A stretch of DNA of 37,355 nt from a virus (IMGVR_UViG_3300028829_002503), one strand, 5' to 3'. Positions 1 through 37,355 are shown, counted from the first letter of the stretch. Numbers and translations: made by a program. The notes: generated from the sequence alone by a model not told the origin.

Positions 1-1144
1 CCCATTCAGAACTAGATATAGATTGTAGTCTTTTCATTTCTTCTGCAATTATCTCAGCACGTTTTAATGGATTGAATTCGCTGTCATAACTGTGATTAAT
101 CCATTTATCAAAAACGTTATATCCTTGGTCACGTAAAGCCTGAATTGTGTACATATCGCCATATGTTATAAAAGGTTGTGCTAACATGAATGGCTTAAAT
201 GACTTCTCACTTAAGAAACAAGTTTTTCCTGCTGTCGCCCACGTTTCAATAATAAACTGAAAATTTGTATTTAACACATGGTCATCGTTCAGAGTGTTAA
301 CTAGATTATAATGCAAATCTTCTGTTGCTGGTTTGCCATTCTGAAGATTTTTCCACGTAGATACTTCATCATATGATTTTTCATACTTAAAGCCACCCAT
401 ACACTTTGGAGAAAGATGAAATCGTTTCAGACTATAGTTCCAATTTATACCTCCATCTACTTCGCCACCCCAACTCCAGTTTGTTCTTTCTAATAGATTA
501 TTGTGGTGCATAATCATCATCATATTAATTCTATGATTTCTAATTCGTCTATTATAATATGTACACATCTTATCTCTTGGTATTCTGTCTTCAACTAATT
601 TTAGTTGTTTTGTTCTCAATTCTGAAATACTGATATCATGTTTATCGTATGCTAATGCACATGCTCTTTCCCACCAATTACTATAATGCAGTTCTACGGG
701 AGAATTTAATGTTAATGTATTCCAATCTCCAGATATCCAAATAATATCTTTATACTCACAAGAGAATACATATTTTAGAAACTCCCAACGAATCCCCCAA
801 TATCCTTCTGTTGAGTGGTCAATCATAAATCTACATCTTCCAGACAAAACATCTTCTTTAATTCTATCTGGCAACTCTTTTGCTATTCCTCTTCTATACT
901 CGTCTCTACATTTTATGTGATTTGAATCTTCATCATCAATGTATGTACTAACAGATTCCATAGATAATGCTTTTGTAACATAGTTAGAAGTTTCTTGCCA
1001 ATGTAGATGATAGTAGTAAGTCTCGCCATCATACTTCCAGTCTTCTAGTTCATGCTTATTTTTGAATTCTATTCTAGGATTGTCTGGATGCACATATCTA
1101 TCGTCTGCATGATAATAGTCTCCAGAAAGAAATACAGTTTTCAT
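1..1144 (-). CDS. GT10 (fucosyltransferase)-like putative glycosyltransferase, 3'-partial (absent from the ORF track)
   Basis: Translated by hand. ATG at 1144 overlaps the upstream TAA (TAATG), and the frame is open to the window edge: MKTVFLSGDYYHADD...YNRRIRNHR...FQFIIETWATAGKTCFLSEKSFKPFMLAQPFITYG...GYNVFDKWINHSYD. The E-x(n)-SEK segment resembles the GT10 FEN...TEK motif. Paralog of 9514..10728. Confidence 0.7.
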   Translation of the reverse strand, partial: MKTVFLSGDYYHADDRYVHPDNPRIEFKNKHELEDWKYDGETYYYHLHWQETSNYVTKALSMESVSTYIDDEDSNHIKCRDEYRRGIAKELPDRIKEDVLSGRCRFMIDHSTEGYWGIRWEFLKYVFSCEYKDIIWISGDWNTLTLNSPVELHYSNWWERACALAYDKHDISISELRTKQLKLVEDRIPRDKMCTYYNRRIRNHRINMMMIMHHNNLLERTNWSWGGEVDGGINWNYSLKRFHLSPKCMGGFKYEKSYDEVSTWKNLQNGKPATEDLHYNLVNTLNDDHVLNTNFQFIIETWATAGKTCFLSEKSFKPFMLAQPFITYGDMYTIQALRDQGYNVFDKWINHSYDSEFNPLKRAEIIAEEMKRLQSISSSEW

Positions 1145-26722: not shown

Positions 26723-29700
26723 TTATAGAAGATTCTCTAAATTTTTGTCGTTATTTCTAACTAATTGCATAGGAGTTTCAAGTACATACACTGTGTCATT
26801 ATTAGAAAAATTGTATCCTAAACCACTATAAAGCATTCTATCACTAATATTCAAGGTCGTAGTATCTTTGTTATCATACATCATAAATTCGATGTTATTA
26901 GTGCCTGCTTTCTGAACTGCTATTAGTTTTCGGTTATCAGTAGATGCACTATCATCAAATTTTGCAGAAGTATTCACTACTATGGTGTCTCCGGTGAATG
27001 ATGAAATAGTGTCTGAACTACTAACTGCAATGCTGTAACCTCTACCATATACATCATACACATAAAATTCTGTTTTGTCAAGGTGTAATGTCGATAAATC
27101 TGCACCTTCTACATTCGAATCTGCTCCACCAACAGTATCCGTATAATTTTGTAATACTAATACTGCCGATTCCAATGTTCGTGCGTCAACTTGTCCCGAA
27201 TCGAATCCTACTGTTGATTGAGTAGGATAGAACCTATCTCCTATTTCAAGTGCTTTTCCTGTACCTGTTCCGACTCCATTTGCAACGAACTGAGTACCAA
27301 TATTATTATCAGCCGAGCCAATTAACGTGAAATCTGTTGTTCCGACTAACTGTATTTGGTACTGAGTTCCAATTTCGAAGAAACCCGCTTCAAATGTTTT
27401 GCCTGATTTTGGTATTAATGAGCCTTGCTCATATACGCCATCATCAATATTAGCGGACGCATTACCATCATATAACGCCAAATCATATCTACTGCCGTTA
27501 CCAATATCTATTGTGATATTCATATTTTCACTAATAGTTGTGGTTGCGTCAACTGTGTCTTCTGTTGCTCTTGTTCGGGAAATTTCTCTTATCTTAACAT
27601 GATATGGTTTTGATTCTTTAATATAATCTAACACATCCTGTTCACTATCTCTTTGATATACCGCATATTGTTTTAAATCTCTGTTGTATAAATTTAAATC
27701 TATGTAACTTGTCTTAAACAACCATTCAGGATATGTTTTCTCTGTATATAAGTATTGAACCATACCAAAGAATATGTCATTAATAAATTTGGTATCTGGG
27801 TAATCTTGTATTAGATTCATTAATTCATGAATCTGGACTCCTACTGCATTGGCATAATATCCATTAAATGATTCTTCTGGAAACACAAGATTAGTTAGTG
27901 ATATGTTTAATGCACTTTTACTTCTGTTTACCAATTGTAAGATATCTAAGTGTTCAAAATAATATTCATCATGTGTTGGTAATTTTAATTTAAATGATTT
28001 TATTCCTTTGTTGTACTCTGCAATCATATCGAAGTTTCTAGTTGTTGAGAGATAAGAAAATACATCTATACTCTTAAACTTTTTATCTATATACCAATCA
28101 CCCAAACTAAAGATAATATCACTAGTATCTACATATTGTTCATAGTTGGTGTATAATGCAGTTAGCATCTTATTGCCCATATGTTCATTTATAATTGAAG
28201 TGAAGTTATTTCTTGCTTTTTCAGTATCCGAGAACCAATTATCTTCCTTGTATCCTAACTTGTACACTCGTAAAACATCACCTTCTGCTAGATTAGTACT
28301 ACCGATGCGAGATATTTGTAAGTCTGAACCGACAATACTTAAATCGCTGGCTCTTACTGTCATACTATCAATAGTTACTACCAAGTTATCATCTATAATT
28401 AAATCTGTAATCCAAGAAATTGGAATTAGTGCATATTGTGGATTACTTAATTGAGAACTCGTAAGTCTTCCTGTGTATGTTTCTTTTATAGTAGTTCCTG
28501 CCAATGATTCAATCATGTCAGTTAAGAACCTCTTAGGAACAGAATAATCAGAAGATTTAGATAACAATTCCCAATCAGAATTTGTAGTGCGAACTTCTTC
28601 GTCTTGCTGATATTCGAATGTTGTACTAATAGTAGAATTATCATAAGTTGTTGCATTGTTACTTATAATAACTTTTTTCGTTCCAACTGGTAAGAATTTA
28701 TTCTTAGGTCCTTCAGAATTTATCAACATTGCAATTTCTTTACAATCGTCATCATCTGGAGACCAGAAGAAATACTCAGTCACTTCTTTGCCTGCTACAA
28801 CATCATAGTATGTCTTCGTATTATATGATTCTACTAGAGTTGGTATTGTTCTGGATTTTGTCCATTTACTTACTACCACATTCGAGTTTGCAACTAACTT
28901 GCCCCAATATTTTTTAGCATAGTCAGTGTTTATGTTTCCGTTCGAATCGCCATAGTCGTTATATCTATAAAATCTGGCTAAGTCAGTGTCCCACCATATC
29001 TTGCCAAGTTTTTCATCTAACCAAATATCAGAACTGCCTGATACGTCATATTTTGCTGGGTCATTCCATGCAACATATTCTAGTTTAGAAGTAATTGCGC
29101 CTGGCATTTTCAAGTTCAATGGGTCATATAGTGAATGATTAGTAAAGTTTTCTCCATCTTTAACAATTATTCTTTTAACAAAATCAGTATTAATTGTGGC
29201 CGCTTGTCTGGCATATATTGAATATGCACCATTTTTGAAATTGAGGACTGCCCAACCATTTGCATCATAATCGTCTACCCACAATTTACTTTCACTATTC
29301 AATCCTAAAGTAGTTGCAAAATTAGAGAACGTAGCGCCATTAAAGTTCGGCGTATATCTCAATGATTTCCAAATCATTGCTTTGAAGTTTGCACTACTTG
29401 TTACGTTTGAGTATTCTAATCGAAGTCCTATTCTTGTTAATATAGTGTCAGATGTTCCTGAGAATGTCATACTAACATTATCGTTTGTGAATATCATTCT
29501 TCCGTCACTTGAAACTGATACAACCACGTCTGTGGCAGCCGTAATTTGTGATGCAAAATCAACTGCACTAGAACTTAATACTGATGTGTTTGTAAATGTG
29601 CCTGATGAAATTCCTATATCAGAAAGTGGATTGCCTGATATATTAGAAGTAACTATACTACTTTCTGAACTTGTAATTAATACTTGTCTGTCAGATTTAG

Positions 29701-32700
29701 ATGCTGTAGTTGTCACACCTTGAAATACTTGTGTGTTCAAGTCAGATATTATTGTGTCTGTGGCATCTATAGAAACTGTAGTGGTTGCATAACCTAATCT
29801 ACTCATAGCACCTGCGGTTACTTCAACTATATCTAAATTATGATTTGTGCTTGTGACTTTAATTGTGCCAGTAACAACGGAAGCAGTTACACCTAAAATG
29901 TTTAATGCGTTTATCTGTTCTACAACACTTGTTTGTGTTGGGTCATCGTTTGCATTATAAGTTCCAGGAGTAATACCCAATTCTGGCAATGCTGTTCCAG
30001 ATATAACCATAGAGGACCCAGAACTAGCAATAGTCATATTTGTTGCAACTGAACAAGTAATATTAGATATTGTATTAATCTCTGTTGCTAGATTTTGTAA
30101 TTTAGATTCTTCATATAAATTTGTTGTTGAAAGTCCTAAGTCTATTAGAACACCGCCGTTTAATACCATCTTAGAGAGTGATGTTGTGAGGACTAAATTG
30201 TTTCCAACATTCGATGCGATTACTTTTGTAGTGCTACCGTTAATAGCATCTACTATCGCAGTCAAGTCATCACCATTTGTTAATGTAATTGTATCACCAT
30301 TGATTACTAATGGCTTAGTTGCTGTCATAACAGGAGAAGAAACTGTTCCAGTAACTTCTAAGTCTGCTACTGCCTTTGTTACACCATCGATAGTAACTGT
30401 GTTGCCAGTTGTTAACAGAGAATTCTCTGTGGCACTTGATGTTAATGATATACTTTGTGAACCACTGTAATCAACAGTCAATGTTGTTCCGTCAATTGTT
30501 ACTTGGTCTCCTACTGTTGGAGTAAACGACCCCGTTGTCTTTGCAACAGTTCCTGAAAATGTTACTGTTGTGTTTGTGTTATTTGCCACTAATCCACTAT
30601 TATTGTAGATAACAAAACTTGCTTGTTCTCCCTCAGATACCACTGGGTTTGCAACTGTACCGAGTATTGATATACCAGATGCTGACGCAGATGATGGAAC
30701 ATAACTTACATTTGCACCATCTATGTATATTGTATCACCTGATGTGAAGACAGGATTACTCACGGAACCAATTGCTTCTACACCAGAGTCAGTGTTTGTT
30801 GGAACAAATACACTATTTGTTGTCTCTGAATCTATCTCAACGATTAGTGGTTCGAAATCTTCTTCGAATACTAGATATTCATATATTGTATTTCCATCTA
30901 CTGTCTTTGTGCCATTTGCAGAAAGTAAATAATATCCAGCAATGTTTGGGTCTACATTATCACTAGAAATTTTTATGTATATGGCTTTATTAGTATAAGA
31001 TGTTGATATTTCAGTTACCATTCCAATATATAATTGGTTATCAGATGTTTCGCCTATATAACTTATTTCAGAAACTTCACTAAGTCTCATCACATCCCAA
31101 TCTCTATCAGTGTCAAACTGTACCCATGCAGTATCTCCTTCATACAACTTCGATGATGCTAAGTCTGTTAGTCCAGCATGAGTATCAGTAACGTAGTTTA
31201 CATCAGACTCGTCTACATAGCCAGTTGTTCTCAATGCTACACTATTCTTTTCAGTACTAGTAATAAGTGGTTTATTTGTATCATATTCTATTAAGAATGG
31301 GTCACTAATCATATCATTGACTGTTATATCTTTCGTCATCGTAAGATTAGAAGGACCTCTTCCATAGTCACTTAACTTAATTGCCCAAATATCATTGTGA
31401 GTTATATTCTTAAAGTTTCCATTGTTGTTGATAATCTTATCAATACTTGAAACTGTTCCTTTGTGTGATAAGAAGCCTTTATAAAATTCTAACTGTGACT
31501 CCCTTTCAACTCCATGATTTGATAGATATGGTCTTGTTGTGTATCCGTAATGGTTAGATTTTAATTTATTAACCATTGAAATGCCTTGGTCAACTACTGT
31601 GTTTCTATAATGACGTGTTTCCTCAATCATTGTATCAAAATTTGGTATTAACTCGTTGTTACTAACAATATAACCATCAATTGTCATAGTGCCGTCCCAA
31701 TCAACAGTTCGGTTACAATCAATTTGCATTCTAAGATTTCTAGTATGCGTGTGTGGGTCATATATTATATCATCGTAACTGTCAACTCTATCAACAACAA
31801 ATGCATGTTCTATATCTCTGATATCTACTTTCATTCCATAAATGGGAACAGTACTAGTAAATGATATTTTGGTGCCATCTGTGTGTATTGTAAGTTCAGT
31901 TTTTGGAATAACTCTACCTGACGCATCTATAACTCGGTAAAAGTTTTTAAAGGTTTCACTAGTGATACTCGCAACACCGTTAGTTGAATTAAAACTTCCG
32001 CCAGTTAGCAATGGAGTAAGAGTAATAAAATCTCCAATATCGTGGCTTTCAGTTTGCCATTCTAAGAATTTATATAATAAGTTTTCCCAATCAATTACTT
32101 CACCAAATTCATCTGTGTCTGTGAATTCCCATCCTAATAGTTTTAGATAGTGTTCGTAGCCAATTATCAAATGTGCAACATCGTCTACTGTCTCTAATAT
32201 ATCACCATAGTTGTAATTTTTTATCGTATCATCTACTAATTTGTTGTAACCCTTTGCTAATGTTTTGTTTGTTGTTGGCCATTCTGTCAATGCTTTCCAT
32301 TTTTTGATATCATCATCAAAAATAGTAGTTGAAGTGTGTGCATCTAAGCAAATATATGGAACATCATTGTATAATATATACGTGTCTGTTCTGTAATATT
32401 CTCCCGATTGCCAATGGGTTAATGTAAGTTTGTCTCCTGCAGTCGTAAATGCTTTCTCTCCACTTGCTTTGTCCCATCCCATAGAATAGAATGTTGGATT
32501 TATTTCATCATATCCATGAACTTTAAATCCAAACTTATTAGTCTTTGGTTGTGATATTTGTGTCCAACTTGCATAGTCAAAGTTTATTGTTGCTCCAGAT
32601 TCTTTTGTAGATACTCCGTCTATTTTTCTTTTGTAGTATTTTCCGTCTCCAGTATTTAAAACAACTAGACCTTTGTAGTATGTTGCTACATCTGAAAGTG

Positions 32701-35635
32701 AATATACCGGATGTGCTAAGTCAAGTGACACTTTTTCTAATACGATAGCACTGAAGAACTCACTTCTATTTGGCACACCTGCGTGAACTACTAAGTCAAA
32801 GTTATCAGAAGGTAGTTCTGTAAATCTACTATTCGCTAATGAATTGTTTTCTGATTGTAATTTAAAGTTGTTAACAAAGCCACCCAGTTTTGAACCTAAT
32901 TTAAATGTATAGTCGGGTTTTAAAGCAACAACTTCGGCAGTATTAATGCCCTCATTATTGTTAGAGTAAGAAATAATATTTTGTATTTGTGTGCTATAGT
33001 CGTAAATAATTTTAAATGGATTTGACAACATCATCAACATAAATTCGGCAAAAGGAAATTCACTACTTCTTGTCCATGCTAATTCTATAGGAGAGTTGTC
33101 TCCAAATTCCCATGATTGTTTCATCAACTCTATTTCTTCATTAGAAAAAGAAACTGAACCGAAGAATAATTCACTAGGCGTTTTTAAGTTTCCTGAACCA
33201 TCAACTGGAATCGGGCAAGTTAAACTGTTTGCGTTTATTAATGTTGACCAAAAAGATGTCAGCGTGTAATCTGAACCGTAGAATGTATCAAAGTTTGCTG
33301 GTTTTTGTGATAGTTTTATTGCTTTCCAAGGTTCTTGTAATGGTCTGTCTGTTCCATATGCATGTAACAACTGTCCTCTCCAGTAACCTGATACTGTTTC
33401 ATTTTTTGCTCTATAGTTCCACGTTTTAAGTTCAGTAGAATCAAATGAATCATTATCTAGGCTGTCAATATCATTTCGCATTAACCATTTCTTAAAAAAT
33501 GGATACATGATAAATTTCTTTTCAGAGTTTGAATAATCAGTATAAGATGTACCATATAAACCATAGTTCATGCTATCAATATCAGAACGTGTATTATCAG
33601 ATAGATTATTAAATACCAAAGTTTCAAAAGCAAGAATAATATTATCCGTTCTTGTATTATATTTTGGTATTAATGACCCATCGTGTCCTTGAATGAAAGA
33701 AACAGAAGGACTATATCCACTATCTGTTATGAATGTTGGTTCATACGCTGGCGCAATCTTCAGTGAAGTTGCACTTGGTGGAATATAAGTTTCTTTTATA
33801 TTAGTATAATGTCTTACAGTTAAGGTGTCTCCGGAAGATAATGCTGATGTAAAGTTTATCTCTGTTGCGCCAGATGATAAAGTGTAATCTATATTTAATC
33901 GCTGAATAATATCATTTAAAATTACAACTACATCTTTATCATTTGTTATCGAGTCTGTAAATGACGGCATAACCTGTTCAGTTGCATTTGCTATGACCGT
34001 AGCATCTAGTGTTTGGTAATGAGAAAACTTCTCGCCAAAGTTCAACATAGTGCTGTCTTTAAAAATACTAACACTTGATTGTTTTCCTAGTGCAATAATT
34101 CCTATCGCTTCTTCTAAAATTTCTAAATCAGTTTTTGTTGTACTTGCACTTGATTCTAAGATAGTAAGAATTGTTGTTATTAGTTTGTTTTTATAGCCAT
34201 TATATGCACCAGATAAGAACTCTGTTCCTTTTATAGGGTTATAGTCTTCTCTTGTTAGTGCAAAATATGCCTCTTTGATATCCACGGTATTTCGAATAAG
34301 AATGCTACCTTGATTTGCAAATCTTAACTTGTCTGTATTTGTGCCTGATGTTCTATAGTTATTGTTCGCTATTGGACTTCCAGTTAATCCAGTAACAGTC
34401 TCAATTATTCTAACGAAATGTTCAAAAACAACAGAGTACGTTATCTCTGTGTTATAGTATGTTTTATTATCTATGTTGTATTCTACTGATGGGTCAATAC
34501 GCTGAAAGACTTCTTGTCCATCATATATAACTGATGTATCAGTACAGTAGTCTACATATATGTTACCACTAACTTCTTCAGTCATAGTTATTGTGTCATC
34601 TGCACTATCATATGTGTAGTTTTCTATTTGTTTCTGTCCGTCAACATATAAATCTATTGTATTAGAATTCTTTGGTGTCTGTAAAAGTTCAATCTTAGAA
34701 ACAGAAATCTTATCACCAATCTCTTGTCTGAAGTTTCGATAATCAAATATAGTAGTTGTATACAATGGTTTATAAGCAGTACTAAGTTTGTATGTTGATG
34801 TTTCTGGTAAATCTATATTAAATACATACTCACTATTATAGTCACCCGCTTTCTCTTTTGGTCGCATGCCCAACTCAGTATCATTTGGGTAAATACTTCC
34901 TGTTACATAGTGAAATATTTTTATGTCATCAAGTGAAGTTGTTCCAGTAGAATCGTATGATTTAAACTCAGGAACAGTAAATGATGATGCTACTGTTGTT
35001 GCCGCACTCGTATCACTTAATTCAATATTTTTATCGAATTCAATAATAGGTCTTAGTGCTTGAGATATTAAAGTAAAATTAGAATCTGTAATTAAGGATT
35101 TGATATCATCATAGTGATACCAAGAGTTATTAGTTTTCCAGAAGTCTGTAGGAACTGGAGTATCTGTTGATAATTTTTTATCAATTGTTACATAATGCTT
35201 TTTTGTTGAACCTGTTATCGAAGAATCAAAACCAGGAGATACCCAGTAATACATACTGTAGTTTACAAATTTATCTAAGTCAATTGGCAATTGAACTGTT
35301 TCTTTTGTACTTTTAAATAATCGTCTATGGTCGTTTGTTAACGCACCTTTATTGTATAACGAATTCAGTAAGTCATCATAAAATATATTATCAGATGCAT
35401 CTACATTTGTGAAAGTTGGTTCTAATCCGTAATTATCTCTTGTATATGCTGTCGCTGGAAACGTAAGATAAGAGTCTTTACTATTGTATATTCCCTTTTC
35501 TTTTCTGCCGACAAATGCTTTTGTTTTCTCCATTTTACCGGTAGAAAACACACGTTCAAGTGTCGTTTCAAATATTGTTTCTAACTCACTATTCTTTAGA
35601 TAATCTGGAAGAAAGTCATAAATCTTCTTTGCCAT
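26723..35635 (-). CDS. Giant virion structural protein (baseplate/tail-associated, 2970 aa)
   Basis: Follows a gp6-like gene. Contains small beta modules (e.g. VILND...DYTL...INFTSALSSGDTLTV), a CBM5/12-like motif, a Ser/Thr-rich repeat region and YIKESKPYHVKIR near the C-terminus. Confidence 0.75.
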   Translation of the reverse strand: MAKKIYDFLPDYLKNSELETIFETTLERVFSTGKMEKTKAFVGRKEKGIYNSKDSYLTFPATAYTRDNYGLEPTFTNVDASDNIFYDDLLNSLYNKGALTNDHRRLFKSTKETVQLPIDLDKFVNYSMYYWVSPGFDSSITGSTKKHYVTIDKKLSTDTPVPTDFWKTNNSWYHYDDIKSLITDSNFTLISQALRPIIEFDKNIELSDTSAATTVASSFTVPEFKSYDSTGTTSLDDIKIFHYVTGSIYPNDTELGMRPKEKAGDYNSEYVFNIDLPETSTYKLSTAYKPLYTTTIFDYRNFRQEIGDKISVSKIELLQTPKNSNTIDLYVDGQKQIENYTYDSADDTITMTEEVSGNIYVDYCTDTSVIYDGQEVFQRIDPSVEYNIDNKTYYNTEITYSVVFEHFVRIIETVTGLTGSPIANNNYRTSGTNTDKLRFANQGSILIRNTVDIKEAYFALTREDYNPIKGTEFLSGAYNGYKNKLITTILTILESSASTTKTDLEILEEAIGIIALGKQSSVSIFKDSTMLNFGEKFSHYQTLDATVIANATEQVMPSFTDSITNDKDVVVILNDIIQRLNIDYTLSSGATEINFTSALSSGDTLTVRHYTNIKETYIPPSATSLKIAPAYEPTFITDSGYSPSVSFIQGHDGSLIPKYNTRTDNIILAFETLVFNNLSDNTRSDIDSMNYGLYGTSYTDYSNSEKKFIMYPFFKKWLMRNDIDSLDNDSFDSTELKTWNYRAKNETVSGYWRGQLLHAYGTDRPLQEPWKAIKLSQKPANFDTFYGSDYTLTSFWSTLINANSLTCPIPVDGSGNLKTPSELFFGSVSFSNEEIELMKQSWEFGDNSPIELAWTRSSEFPFAEFMLMMLSNPFKIIYDYSTQIQNIISYSNNNEGINTAEVVALKPDYTFKLGSKLGGFVNNFKLQSENNSLANSRFTELPSDNFDLVVHAGVPNRSEFFSAIVLEKVSLDLAHPVYSLSDVATYYKGLVVLNTGDGKYYKRKIDGVSTKESGATINFDYASWTQISQPKTNKFGFKVHGYDEINPTFYSMGWDKASGEKAFTTAGDKLTLTHWQSGEYYRTDTYILYNDVPYICLDAHTSTTIFDDDIKKWKALTEWPTTNKTLAKGYNKLVDDTIKNYNYGDILETVDDVAHLIIGYEHYLKLLGWEFTDTDEFGEVIDWENLLYKFLEWQTESHDIGDFITLTPLLTGGSFNSTNGVASITSETFKNFYRVIDASGRVIPKTELTIHTDGTKISFTSTVPIYGMKVDIRDIEHAFVVDRVDSYDDIIYDPHTHTRNLRMQIDCNRTVDWDGTMTIDGYIVSNNELIPNFDTMIEETRHYRNTVVDQGISMVNKLKSNHYGYTTRPYLSNHGVERESQLEFYKGFLSHKGTVSSIDKIINNNGNFKNITHNDIWAIKLSDYGRGPSNLTMTKDITVNDMISDPFLIEYDTNKPLITSTEKNSVALRTTGYVDESDVNYVTDTHAGLTDLASSKLYEGDTAWVQFDTDRDWDVMRLSEVSEISYIGETSDNQLYIGMVTEISTSYTNKAIYIKISSDNVDPNIAGYYLLSANGTKTVDGNTIYEYLVFEEDFEPLIVEIDSETTNSVFVPTNTDSGVEAIGSVSNPVFTSGDTIYIDGANVSYVPSSASASGISILGTVANPVVSEGEQASFVIYNNSGLVANNTNTTVTFSGTVAKTTGSFTPTVGDQVTIDGTTLTVDYSGSQSISLTSSATENSLLTTGNTVTIDGVTKAVADLEVTGTVSSPVMTATKPLVINGDTITLTNGDDLTAIVDAINGSTTKVIASNVGNNLVLTTSLSKMVLNGGVLIDLGLSTTNLYEESKLQNLATEINTISNITCSVATNMTIASSGSSMVISGTALPELGITPGTYNANDDPTQTSVVEQINALNILGVTASVVTGTIKVTSTNHNLDIVEVTAGAMSRLGYATTTVSIDATDTIISDLNTQVFQGVTTTASKSDRQVLITSSESSIVTSNISGNPLSDIGISSGTFTNTSVLSSSAVDFASQITAATDVVVSVSSDGRMIFTNDNVSMTFSGTSDTILTRIGLRLEYSNVTSSANFKAMIWKSLRYTPNFNGATFSNFATTLGLNSESKLWVDDYDANGWAVLNFKNGAYSIYARQAATINTDFVKRIIVKDGENFTNHSLYDPLNLKMPGAITSKLEYVAWNDPAKYDVSGSSDIWLDEKLGKIWWDTDLARFYRYNDYGDSNGNINTDYAKKYWGKLVANSNVVVSKWTKSRTIPTLVESYNTKTYYDVVAGKEVTEYFFWSPDDDDCKEIAMLINSEGPKNKFLPVGTKKVIISNNATTYDNSTISTTFEYQQDEEVRTTNSDWELLSKSSDYSVPKRFLTDMIESLAGTTIKETYTGRLTSSQLSNPQYALIPISWITDLIIDDNLVVTIDSMTVRASDLSIVGSDLQISRIGSTNLAEGDVLRVYKLGYKEDNWFSDTEKARNNFTSIINEHMGNKMLTALYTNYEQYVDTSDIIFSLGDWYIDKKFKSIDVFSYLSTTRNFDMIAEYNKGIKSFKLKLPTHDEYYFEHLDILQLVNRSKSALNISLTNLVFPEESFNGYYANAVGVQIHELMNLIQDYPDTKFINDIFFGMVQYLYTEKTYPEWLFKTSYIDLNLYNRDLKQYAVYQRDSEQDVLDYIKESKPYHVKIREISRTRATEDTVDATTTISENMNITIDIGNGSRYDLALYDGNASANIDDGVYEQGSLIPKSGKTFEAGFFEIGTQYQIQLVGTTDFTLIGSADNNIGTQFVANGVGTGTGKALEIGDRFYPTQSTVGFDSGQVDARTLESAVLVLQNYTDTVGGADSNVEGADLSTLHLDKTEFYVYDVYGRGYSIAVSSSDTISSFTGDTIVVNTSAKFDDSASTDNRKLIAVQKAGTNNIEFMMYDNKDTTTLNISDRMLYSGLGYNFSNNDTVYVLETPMQLVRNNDKNLENLL
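29423..30785 (-). repeat. Protein-level repeat region: five 'A' half-repeats followed by five 'B' half-repeats
   Basis: A: (G)xVxxPxxxxGDxxxIDG-like, five copies. B: amphipathic helix ending IN/LN/IT ... LxxLG(L/I/Y), five copies. Confidence 0.65.
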
Positions 35636-35637
35636 GT

Positions 35638-37355
35638 TTATTCGCCTACTAATTCAGATTGTGCTAATTGTGTAATTATTTTTACATCATTTGATGTAGT
35701 AACTGCCATAAATATTTCATTCAATGCACATGATATACTTAACAAGTTTGTAAAGTTGTTCGATGCATATTTTGGTGTAATAACTACACTAGATATATAG
35801 TCTCCTAGTTCTTTGTGAAGGTATGCCGCTAACTCTGAGAAATAGAATGTGTCTCCAAATTCCCAATTATCAAGGGCAAAGTATTCATTTACTTTTGTAG
35901 ATACTGCTGTTTTAATTTCACTATCAGTATATCCTACACCTAGTTTCTTAATGACTTTAAAAATCGCTTGGTTCTCATTTTTTGCATATGAACCAAACAG
36001 ATATTTAAATTCTACAGGTATATAAGCAATATGGTCAGCCATTGCTGCCTTTGGTTCTATACTGTCCATTATTTTAGATAGTTCAAAGTTGTTAGGAGCG
36101 ACTGGTGTAGTTGCTGTAAAATTGCCTGCTACCCATTCGTTTACTTCTCTGACATAATCAGAACCCAATACATACATGTCAACAATATTACTAGTACTTG
36201 GATTTATTCTCTTATCTATGTCAGCATAGTGTTCCCATCTGAAACTCGTAAACCTGTCTTCAACAAAAGTTGTTCCTTCTACTACTCTATACTGAATACT
36301 ATTATAATTAATTTGTATTAAATCACCAACTGATTGGTCTACGTGTCCTGTTAATGGACTCCAAGCACCCAACTCTCTTCTTCTCCAGATGCCATCTGTT
36401 GTATTGTAGTAGATTGATGCTGTGTCTGGAACTAAATTTGCATTAGAAGCCGCCACAACACTGACTGATGCTCTTTCGAATGTTATGTTATTATCTATAT
36501 ATTGTTCTAAAACGATTTTCTCATCTTCAGTCACCTCAAGAATTGCAAAAGGATTGTCATTTATATCTGATGTTAGCAACTTAACTTTAGTATTATCTAT
36601 GTAACCGCTCAATGTAGTGTAATCATCATGGATATATGATGCAACTGTTTTATACGTAATAGTAGTATTAGAATTATTATTTGCTATATCAAACGTTGCT
36701 TTAACTCTTACTGAATAGTTTGCAAGGTCAGATAACGTTGGTGCAACTCCAAGGAATACATCAATAAGGTCTCCAACATTCACTGCATATGTCCAGAAAA
36801 CAATCTTGTATGTCGTTCCTGTTGTGTTCGTAACTGTAATATGTTCATTATCTAACACAACTCCATTTGCGTCTCTTAGTACAATGTTACTTGTAGTAAG
36901 CGGGTCAGTTCCAGTAGCATTTGTTATTGTAAACTCACCATAAGCATATTGTTTAAATTTTATATCATTATCTAGGTAATTTATTGTTCCTGAATCTGTA
37001 GTAGATATAGTGAATGTATATTCATCTGTAGCCGGTGATGGTCCAGAATATGTTGTTATGTAATTGTTACTTTCAAAGTTATCAGATTCATCTCTCCAAA
37101 CAAAATTACTTGTAGTTGCCGCAGAGTTAAAATAAGCCAACGATACTTTTCCTTTGAATCCCAAATCTTCTATATTCTGTGTAGATTTTACAGTATGTGC
37201 ATCAACATTGTCTGCCACATTACCAGTATATCCACCTGTAAATGCAACTACGTCAACTGATAAGTTTGTATCTGATGAGGAACTTGTTGGGACATCTTGT
37301 TGTATAGAAGTAGACAAGTCTGTTAAATCTGCTAGGTCTGATACTGCGAAACTTA
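35638..37355 (-). CDS. Baseplate wedge protein (T4 gp6-like C-terminus), 5'-partial
   Basis: The frame stays open from 37317 to the window edge, so the track's TTG is not the start. The C-terminal VNEYFALDNWEFGDTFYFSELAAYLH...ISSVVI resembles gp6/baseplate-J C-terminal domains. Confidence 0.65.
   Translation of the reverse strand, partial: SFAVSDLADLTDLSTSIQQDVPTSSSSDTNLSVDVVAFTGGYTGNVADNVDAHTVKSTQNIEDLGFKGKVSLAYFNSAATTSNFVWRDESDNFESNNYITTYSGPSPATDEYTFTISTTDSGTINYLDNDIKFKQYAYGEFTITNATGTDPLTTSNIVLRDANGVVLDNEHITVTNTTGTTYKIVFWTYAVNVGDLIDVFLGVAPTLSDLANYSVRVKATFDIANNNSNTTITYKTVASYIHDDYTTLSGYIDNTKVKLLTSDINDNPFAILEVTEDEKIVLEQYIDNNITFERASVSVVAASNANLVPDTASIYYNTTDGIWRRRELGAWSPLTGHVDQSVGDLIQINYNSIQYRVVEGTTFVEDRFTSFRWEHYADIDKRINPSTSNIVDMYVLGSDYVREVNEWVAGNFTATTPVAPNNFELSKIMDSIEPKAAMADHIAYIPVEFKYLFGSYAKNENQAIFKVIKKLGVGYTDSEIKTAVSTKVNEYFALDNWEFGDTFYFSELAAYLHKELGDYISSVVITPKYASNNFTNLLSISCALNEIFMAVTTSNDVKIITQLAQSELVGE

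Follow-up and report, generated by a model that had tools for sequence, protein, structure and literature searches.

The window, that is, the whole 37,355-nucleotide stretch of DNA analyzed here, from an uncultured marine jumbo phage (IMGVR_UViG_3300028829_002503), carries on its minus strand the gene of a giant protein, P0001, and directly upstream of it the gene of a baseplate wedge subunit:

26723..35635, minus strand: P0001, a giant virion (baseplate-region) protein of 2970 amino acids (aa), taken from the list of open reading frames (ORFs) and assigned through phrog_10938 and the homologues PA5oct gp355, SCTP-2 gp140 and Atu_ph07 gp180
35638..37353, minus strand: baseplate wedge subunit in a gp6-like position, running off the window; phrog_10646 'baseplate wedge subunit', E 6.6e-58

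An earlier note, made from the DNA sequence alone, had described within P0001 a run of five N-half motifs (A1 to A5) followed by five C-half motifs (B5 to B1), and had proposed that these are the halves of five domains inserted one inside another. We found all five A motifs and all ten pieces of the B motifs at the positions where they had been described (residues 1623-2071, window 29423-30769), and A5-B5 was indeed the only contiguous A/B pair. The segment that holds them, residues 1617-2076 (460 residues) and hereafter called the nest, is most probably composed of five self-nested domains of the type represented by Flagellin_IN, FliD D3, flagellin outer domains and sheath insertion domains, and likely forms a side arm at the baseplate periphery. 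The nest was modeled twice with AlphaFold2, from 55 sequences over residues 1585-2110 (model 1) and from 60 sequences over residues 1430-2250 (model 2). Its levels, with boundaries drawn so that the last strand of one A motif opens the next level, are as follows:

30680..30787, minus strand: level 1, N-terminal side, residues 1617-1652, three strands, motif A1; DSSP strands 35-38, 51-54 and 57-60 of model 1, weak superpositions
30551..30679, minus strand: level 2, N-terminal side, residues 1653-1695, motif A2; strands 71-74, 87-93 and 106-108, superpositions
30452..30550, minus strand: level 3, N-terminal side, residues 1696-1728, motif A3; strands 112-115, 127-130 and 133-136, superpositions
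30368..30451, minus strand: level 4, N-terminal side, residues 1729-1756, motif A4; strands 145-148, 162-165 and 168-171, superpositions in both models
30104..30367, minus strand: level 5, residues 1757-1844, motifs A5 and B5, the sole contiguous domain and the predicted tip of the nest; superposition on flagellin and FliD D3
29963..30103, minus strand: level 4, C-terminal side, residues 1845-1891, motif B4; helix 261-269, strands 275-279, 283-287 and 291-295, helix 299-302, strand 307-310
29768..29962, minus strand: level 3, C-terminal side, residues 1892-1956, motif B3; DSSP and superpositions
29585..29767, minus strand: level 2, C-terminal side, residues 1957-2017, motif B2; DSSP and superpositions
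29408..29584, minus strand: level 1, C-terminal side, residues 2018-2076, motif B1; DSSP and superpositions, with a lower predicted local distance difference test score (pLDDT) of 63-90

The region that encodes the nest also contains, on the opposite strand, a 113-aa ORF (window 29382-29723, plus strand), which probably exists by chance in this gene of low GC content.

Model 1 had a mean pLDDT of 85.5, with values >90 through nearly all of the repeat region. Model 2 showed the same secondary structure, again with pLDDT >90 in the nest; its linkers at residues 1594-1616 and 2078-2091 had pLDDT <50, the flanks of the nest were beta-rich or disordered, and no host domain was resolved. The predicted template modeling scores (pTM) of the two runs were 0.58 and 0.40, and at these values the models give no support for a straight stack of the five domains. 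In model 1 the set of elements was identical at every level, namely three strands, the insert, a helix, three strands, a short helix and a strand. We probed the nesting by rigid superposition of single compact PDB domains (~90-120 residues) on ranges of the models, with the following results (rmsd, root-mean-square deviation):

Level 5: model 173..259, 79-86 residues aligned, Z up to 11.3, rmsd about 1.9
Level 4: model 142-145..305-307, 70-77 residues aligned, Z up to 7.5, rmsd 2.3-2.9
Level 3: model 112-113..366-372, 73-75 residues aligned, Z 4.5-5.4, rmsd 3.0-3.5
Level 2: model 68-70..425-433, 79-88 residues aligned, Z 3.4-5.7, rmsd 3.1-3.6
Level 1: model 25-33..484-497, 65-77 residues aligned, Z 3.5-3.8 with unrelated folds, rmsd 3.0-4.8

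The five superposed ranges enclose one another, each starts and ends on strands predicted for its level, and the aligned length at each level (65-88 residues) corresponds to the residues left after the inner levels are skipped. Levels 5 and 4 were repeated in model 2 at the expected shift of 155 residues (level 4 at 298-301..460-462). Discontiguous superpositions that enclose one another in this manner indicate that A_n and B_n form one domain in both models, and the pairing of A1 with B1 through A5 with B5, as the recursive order A1-A5-B5-B1 had implied, is thereby borne out at the level of prediction. The nest would thus consist of five homologous domains of ~90 residues each, and in each of the four outer ones the loop connecting the N-terminal strands to the helix would hold the next domain. 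Given insertion in this loop at each level, the chain runs out from A1 to A5 and back from B5 to B1, and in the models the segment starts and finishes at one proximal base, with domain 5 as the distal tip.

The repeats can also be recognized at the level of sequence profiles. Pooled A and pooled B hidden Markov models (HMMs) gave poor alignments and were replaced by one profile per A or B unit, each from an alignment of ~50 homologues, which we compared with one another using hhalign. The B units matched one another with a probability of 80-97% in eight of ten pairs. Among the A units, A1-A5 reached 95% and A1-A3 85%, and the weakness of the remaining pairs (1-60%) marks A2 and A4 as divergent. 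By this measure the B units appear clearly homologous to one another and the short A units less clearly so. The unit HMMs cross-matched sister units within the nest (E 1e-4 to 3e-6), found no match elsewhere in the 2970 aa of P0001, and gave one marginal match in ~23,600 aa of six distant homologues, a pattern that speaks for genuine repeats and not for chance. DNA-level repeats of note were absent across the nest, suggesting that the duplications are old.

The central domain had been likened to domains of flagellar and sheath-associated proteins, and structural comparison confirmed both resemblances. Model 173..259 superposed on a Vibrio cholerae flagellin with Z 11.3 and rmsd 1.9 A over 83 aligned residues (Z 11.3-11.5 over both models), on residues 104..209 (D3) of Escherichia coli FliD with Z 9.5 and rmsd 1.9 A over 81 aligned residues at 25% identity, and on the sheath of cyanophage A-1(L) with Z 8.1. 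Superpositions of two domains at once were obtained with Helicobacter pylori FlaB (116 aligned, rmsd 3.1, Z 10.0) and Campylobacter jejuni flagellin (131 aligned, rmsd 3.7, Z 8.1). The top structural matches were all flagellar (V. cholerae flagellins, H. pylori FlaB, and FliD D3 of E. coli, Salmonella and Serratia), and the best PDB match by Foldseek was H. pylori FliD over 368 columns. Next came phage tail parts, comprising the sheaths of A-1(L), PhiTE, Mu, Milano, E217 and Bas63, a T7-type tail tubular protein B and the XM1 baseplate. The predicted models in BFVD that aligned over 400-650 columns were those of long sheath proteins and of baseplate-J-like proteins from uncultured phages. A link to the Pfam family PF07196 (Flagellin_IN) was found in relatives: the homologue P0055, 38-41% identical over the nest, matches it in three stretches, with 35.8 bits at the central domain, and the fragments P0082, P0086 and P0087 (61-66% identical) carry precomputed PF07196 assignments. 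In P0055 the match covers the hairpin and the helix and therefore spans the A|B junction. We also considered whether P0001 is itself an axial flagellar protein (flagellin, FliD or FlgE/K/L) and rejected this, since its 2970 aa contain no D0/D1 core and match neither the Pfam flagellin N- and C-terminal families nor FliD. Judged from the models, what P0001 shares with flagellar proteins is the outer-domain fold only.

We analyzed the arrangement of the halves across relatives. The search with the nest segment returned 20 matching proteins among 1.84 billion representatives, and the close relatives are marine metagenome proteins, some of them from TARA mesopelagic samples. The order A1..A5 B5..B1 is kept in all 59 full-length homologues (54 from the first search and five more), five of which (P0044 and P0057-P0060) have one or two inner A units that fall below the HMM cut-off or receive another A label. 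The halves occur in matched numbers in these 59 proteins (5+5) and also outside the full-length family: 3+3 in P0062, 2+2 in the fibre-like proteins P0090-93 (A-A-B-B), and 1+1 in P0094, with one contiguous A+B domain, and in P0095, with two. P0062, a protein of 885 aa with a different N-terminus, aligns through a single high-scoring segment pair with residues 1700-1955, exactly A3..B3 (E 1e-31), and is without A1, A2, B2 and B1, all four together; its relatives in IMG/VR match its N-terminal 320 residues only. In the DNA, an inner block A_k..B_k forms one uninterrupted stretch whose product is a fold complete in itself; this would explain how such a block can move between proteins. We also compared the excess divergence of A_n and B_n across the homologues, and obtained a mean r of 0.36 on the diagonal and -0.14 off it; the nested pairing ranks second of 120 possible A/B pairings, a modest support given that the sequences are related.

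Every indel of more than 40 aa in the full-length homologues lies at the centre of the nest, as would be expected if the centre is the distal tip. Insertions of 82-208 aa at A5|B5 were found in 10 homologues and similar gaps in four more, P0037 has 46 aa between A4 and A5, and P0038 has 125 aa inside B5. The added material includes an immunoglobulin-like (Ig-like) domain, a ~50-aa 'GTTDF' mini-domain and a set of short repeats; P0001 itself has no extra domain at this place. The Ig-like domain at the nest centre of P0045-54 (residues ~1780-1875 of P0045 and P0052) recurs in P0062 (residues 416-475 and 745-790; E 3e-20 to 5e-19), where it surrounds the three-level nest. As it lies inside one nest and around another, either fold can host the other, and both are natural hosts for insertion, a property useful to protein engineers. 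The length of the stalk had been predicted to be tunable by copy number. Such a length dial is unsupported within the full-length family because the copy number is fixed at five in all 59 homologues; what varies there is the complement of extra tip domains of other folds, although nests of one, two or three levels occur in other proteins.

The GTTDF mini-domain has a copy in P0001 as well, near the C-terminus (residues 2744-2795, window 27251-27406, minus strand; ~50 aa with a 'GTTDFTLIG' core). The copies at the nest tip of P0037 and P0038 are 60% identical to it and 85% identical to each other. In P0038 (residues ~300-450), tandem repeats of the 'GSGYTSAP-VTI' type together with a GTTDF mini-domain are placed inside B5, between its first and later strands, so that this domain has two different sites of insertion.

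The genomic setting of P0001 was assessed by profile searches and gene order. P0001 matches phrog_10938 'virion structural protein' (E 5.6e-166, 555 bits) and occupies the conserved place of that family after the large wedge gene; tblastn with P0001 gave matches in 90 phage records. The giant virion proteins of PA5oct, SCTP-2, RaK2-like phages, Phosso and Atu_ph07 are 24-28% identical to P0001. In PA5oct the order of genes is hub/lysozyme, small wedge, 1319-aa wedge, giant protein (gp355) and gp10-like protein, and the database record of every one of these genes, gp355 included, carries an electrospray ionization tandem mass spectrometry (ESI-MS/MS) note; the wedge-then-giant order also occurs in Phosso and Atu_ph07. 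The baseplate location put forward in the earlier note is thus compatible with the position of P0001 after a wedge gene. Because the giant protein follows a gp6-like wedge gene, it occupies the slot of gp7 in T4. The analogy to T4 gp7 is one of gene position; PDB sequence searches with P0001 and with the family profile gave no match to it. In PDB sequence searches neither P0001 nor its upstream neighbour had a match, and the only hits of the family profile were a chitin-binding domain (E 0.25) and V. cholerae flagellin B (E 0.58).

The cultured relatives differ from P0001 at the site of the nest. The giant proteins of PA5oct, SCTP-2, RaK2-like phages and Atu_ph07 are homologous to P0001 at residues 4-1450 and ~2100-2740, and between these regions (query ~1450 to ~2100) they hold 157-1560 aa of unrelated sequence. 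Searches with the unit HMMs found no nest in the cultured jumbo phages PA5oct, SCTP-2, Vibrio 2.275.O, EJP2, Phosso and Atu_ph07, which makes these phages uninformative on the matched gain or loss of halves. Going by these alignments, the nest is a lineage-specific filling of a hypervariable site.

A Pfam scan of the whole of P0001 gave no family above threshold, the only signal being a sub-threshold one (15.6 bits) to the chitin-binding family CBM_5_12 at residues 1075-1102 (window 32330-32413, minus strand), which rises to 21.4 bits in P0055. The annotation of PA5oct-like homologues names a 'chitin-binding type-3 domain'.

Several observations weigh against a nested side arm. PF07196 does not match P0001 even at E<=1 (the gathering score is 22.7 bits), the AlphaFold2 alignments comprised only 55-60 fairly close sequences, and the outermost level is represented by weak matches to unrelated folds (Z 3.5-3.8). 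The contacts between A_n and B_n are deduced from the end residues and aligned lengths of the superpositions and are not direct readings from the coordinates. Similarity among the A units does not mirror that among the B units when compared by eye (A1-A5 ranks first among the A pairs, B1-B5 in the middle of the B pairs), and no order of duplication can be read from them; this comparison is itself weak because the A units are too short. With regard to placement, PHROGs assigns phrog_10938 to the category 'head and packaging', and we infer the function and virion position of the nest from gene order only. Finally, matched gain and loss of halves, which the earlier note had expected among homologues, has an exception in P0073 (696 aa; L009:6001-8091), encoded on a 194-kb viral contig (IMGVR_UViG_3300023235_001889). 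This protein combines a complete A+B domain with four B-only units that come after it, and an insert resembling a carbohydrate-binding module (CBM) interrupts the last of these units. Its single A and five B units break the matching rule unless they are completed in trans, and suggest that B units may stand without A strands in cis. Directly upstream, with a one-base overlap (the pair spans L009:4172-8091), P0074 contains four A-like hairpins and lacks B units, and the C-terminal domain common to both proteins recurs in a third neighbour, P0075 (L009:8110-9099). The two proteins may represent a five-level nest split at A4|A5 and completed in trans, to which the four orphan A units and the four orphan B units would fit.

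The same pair of proteins could be taken to mean that A-only and B-only runs exist in nature, and hence that the segment in P0001 consists of two independent tandem arrays, the A units forming a stack of beta-hairpins and the B units five separate alpha/beta beads, with the nest an artefact of AlphaFold. The indirect nature of the A_n:B_n contacts leaves room for this. However, two independent arrays would account poorly for five discontiguous superpositions that enclose one another, for a canonical Pfam model that crosses the A|B junction, for matched architectures from 5+5 down to 1+1, for the transplantation of exactly A3..B3 into P0062, for large indels confined to the centre, and for the co-divergence of A_n with B_n, and we consider this explanation very improbable. 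We therefore retain the nested arrangement, which presumably arose as copies of the domain, or of a block that was nested already, were inserted one after another into the same loop. Insertion into the same loop again and again leaves both ends of the chain anchored in the baseplate protein and the tip free to take up new domains. In the most likely scenario the nest would serve as a five-bead side arm at the baseplate periphery that holds out its tip, and the loading of that tip with further domains in relatives suggests display toward the host surface, where the tip domains of these relatives probably serve adhesion.

Alternatively, the nest may be real without being an adhesion arm, and may instead be an inert spacer or decoration, a docking scaffold for baseplate or fibre proteins, or part of a protein located elsewhere in the virion. 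None of the five levels has a binding site, a catalytic motif or a known receptor-binding fold, and sheaths, T7-type tail proteins and FliD carry the same fold as structural decoration. In addition, P0001 has no extra domain at its tip, and the PHROG category is 'head and packaging'. On the other hand, the Ig-like and other small domains of relatives stand exactly at the tip, as display would predict, the extent of variation at this site among jumbo phages is typical of host-facing parts, and the neighbouring genes are baseplate genes; on balance this alternative is possible though rather unlikely. The earlier note had also named the segment, which is rich in serine and threonine, as a candidate glycan acceptor. 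Flagellin outer domains are glycosylated in Campylobacter and Helicobacter, and the nest has their fold and a serine plus threonine content of 30.4%, compared with 18.9% in the rest of P0001, so that it might be a putative acceptor of a phage-made glycan in the manner of O-glycosylated flagellin outer domains. Charged residues make up 11.1% of the nest and 22.6% of the rest of the protein, but high serine/threonine and low charge are common in beta-rich variable domains of fibres and flagellins whether or not these are glycosylated, and we regard glycan attachment as quite doubtful. A still broader proposal, slightly more doubtful again, is that the nest would be a phage-glycosylated, flagellin-like display arm and the self-nesting module a general, reciprocally insertable scaffold, possibly split across two polypeptides. 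If true, such an arm would be a phage analogue of the glycosylated outer domains of flagellin.

Among known systems, the closest likenesses to the nest of P0001 are in fold and topology. FliD D2-D3 and flagellin D2/D3 have the same out-and-back topology with inner domains inside outer ones, whereas the nest is deeper, has homologous domains at all levels and has no D0/D1 coiled-coil core. The sheath insertion domains of A-1(L) (8kee), PhiTE, Mu, Milano, E217 and Bas63, as well as the T7-type tubular protein B, have the same small fold inserted in a loop on the outside of tail parts (Z 5.4-8.1, rmsd 2.2-3.1, 70-88 aligned). In the solved sheath and tail proteins, however, the match is a single contiguous domain of ~90-120 residues, while in P0001 there would be five, one inside another. 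Self-insertion of this fold has already been published for the flagellin of Geovibrio thiophilus, in which D5 is reported to be a duplicate of D4 that sits in a loop of D4, and D4 to be related to FliD D2 (PMC11532411). Its D4/D5 (PDB 9au6) share the fold class of the nest, the match to 9au6_A (Z 4.7, 77 aligned) being to a discontiguous target domain (176..585). The likeness is at the level of fold only, and is between two levels in a flagellin and five in a phage baseplate-region protein. Deep recursion is known too, from the Si3 insertion of cyanobacterial RNA polymerase beta', where many homologous HABAS/SBHM domains are recursively inserted (PMC11515920). Si3 differs in having an unrelated fold, in belonging to a cellular enzyme, and in that its domains are partly domain-swapped and interdigitated, in contrast to the concentric A1..A5 B5..B1 of P0001. 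Our literature search found no five-deep, all-homologous nest of Flagellin_IN type in a phage baseplate protein, and neither a transplanted inner block nor reciprocal nesting with an Ig-like domain. The nest of P0001 is thus an instructive deep case of a known principle and not a new kind of thing. It provides a natural example of how a long phage surface arm may be made from one small insertion-tolerant domain, and through it the outer domains of flagellar proteins and parts of phage tails are linked as a single plug-in fold of wide occurrence.

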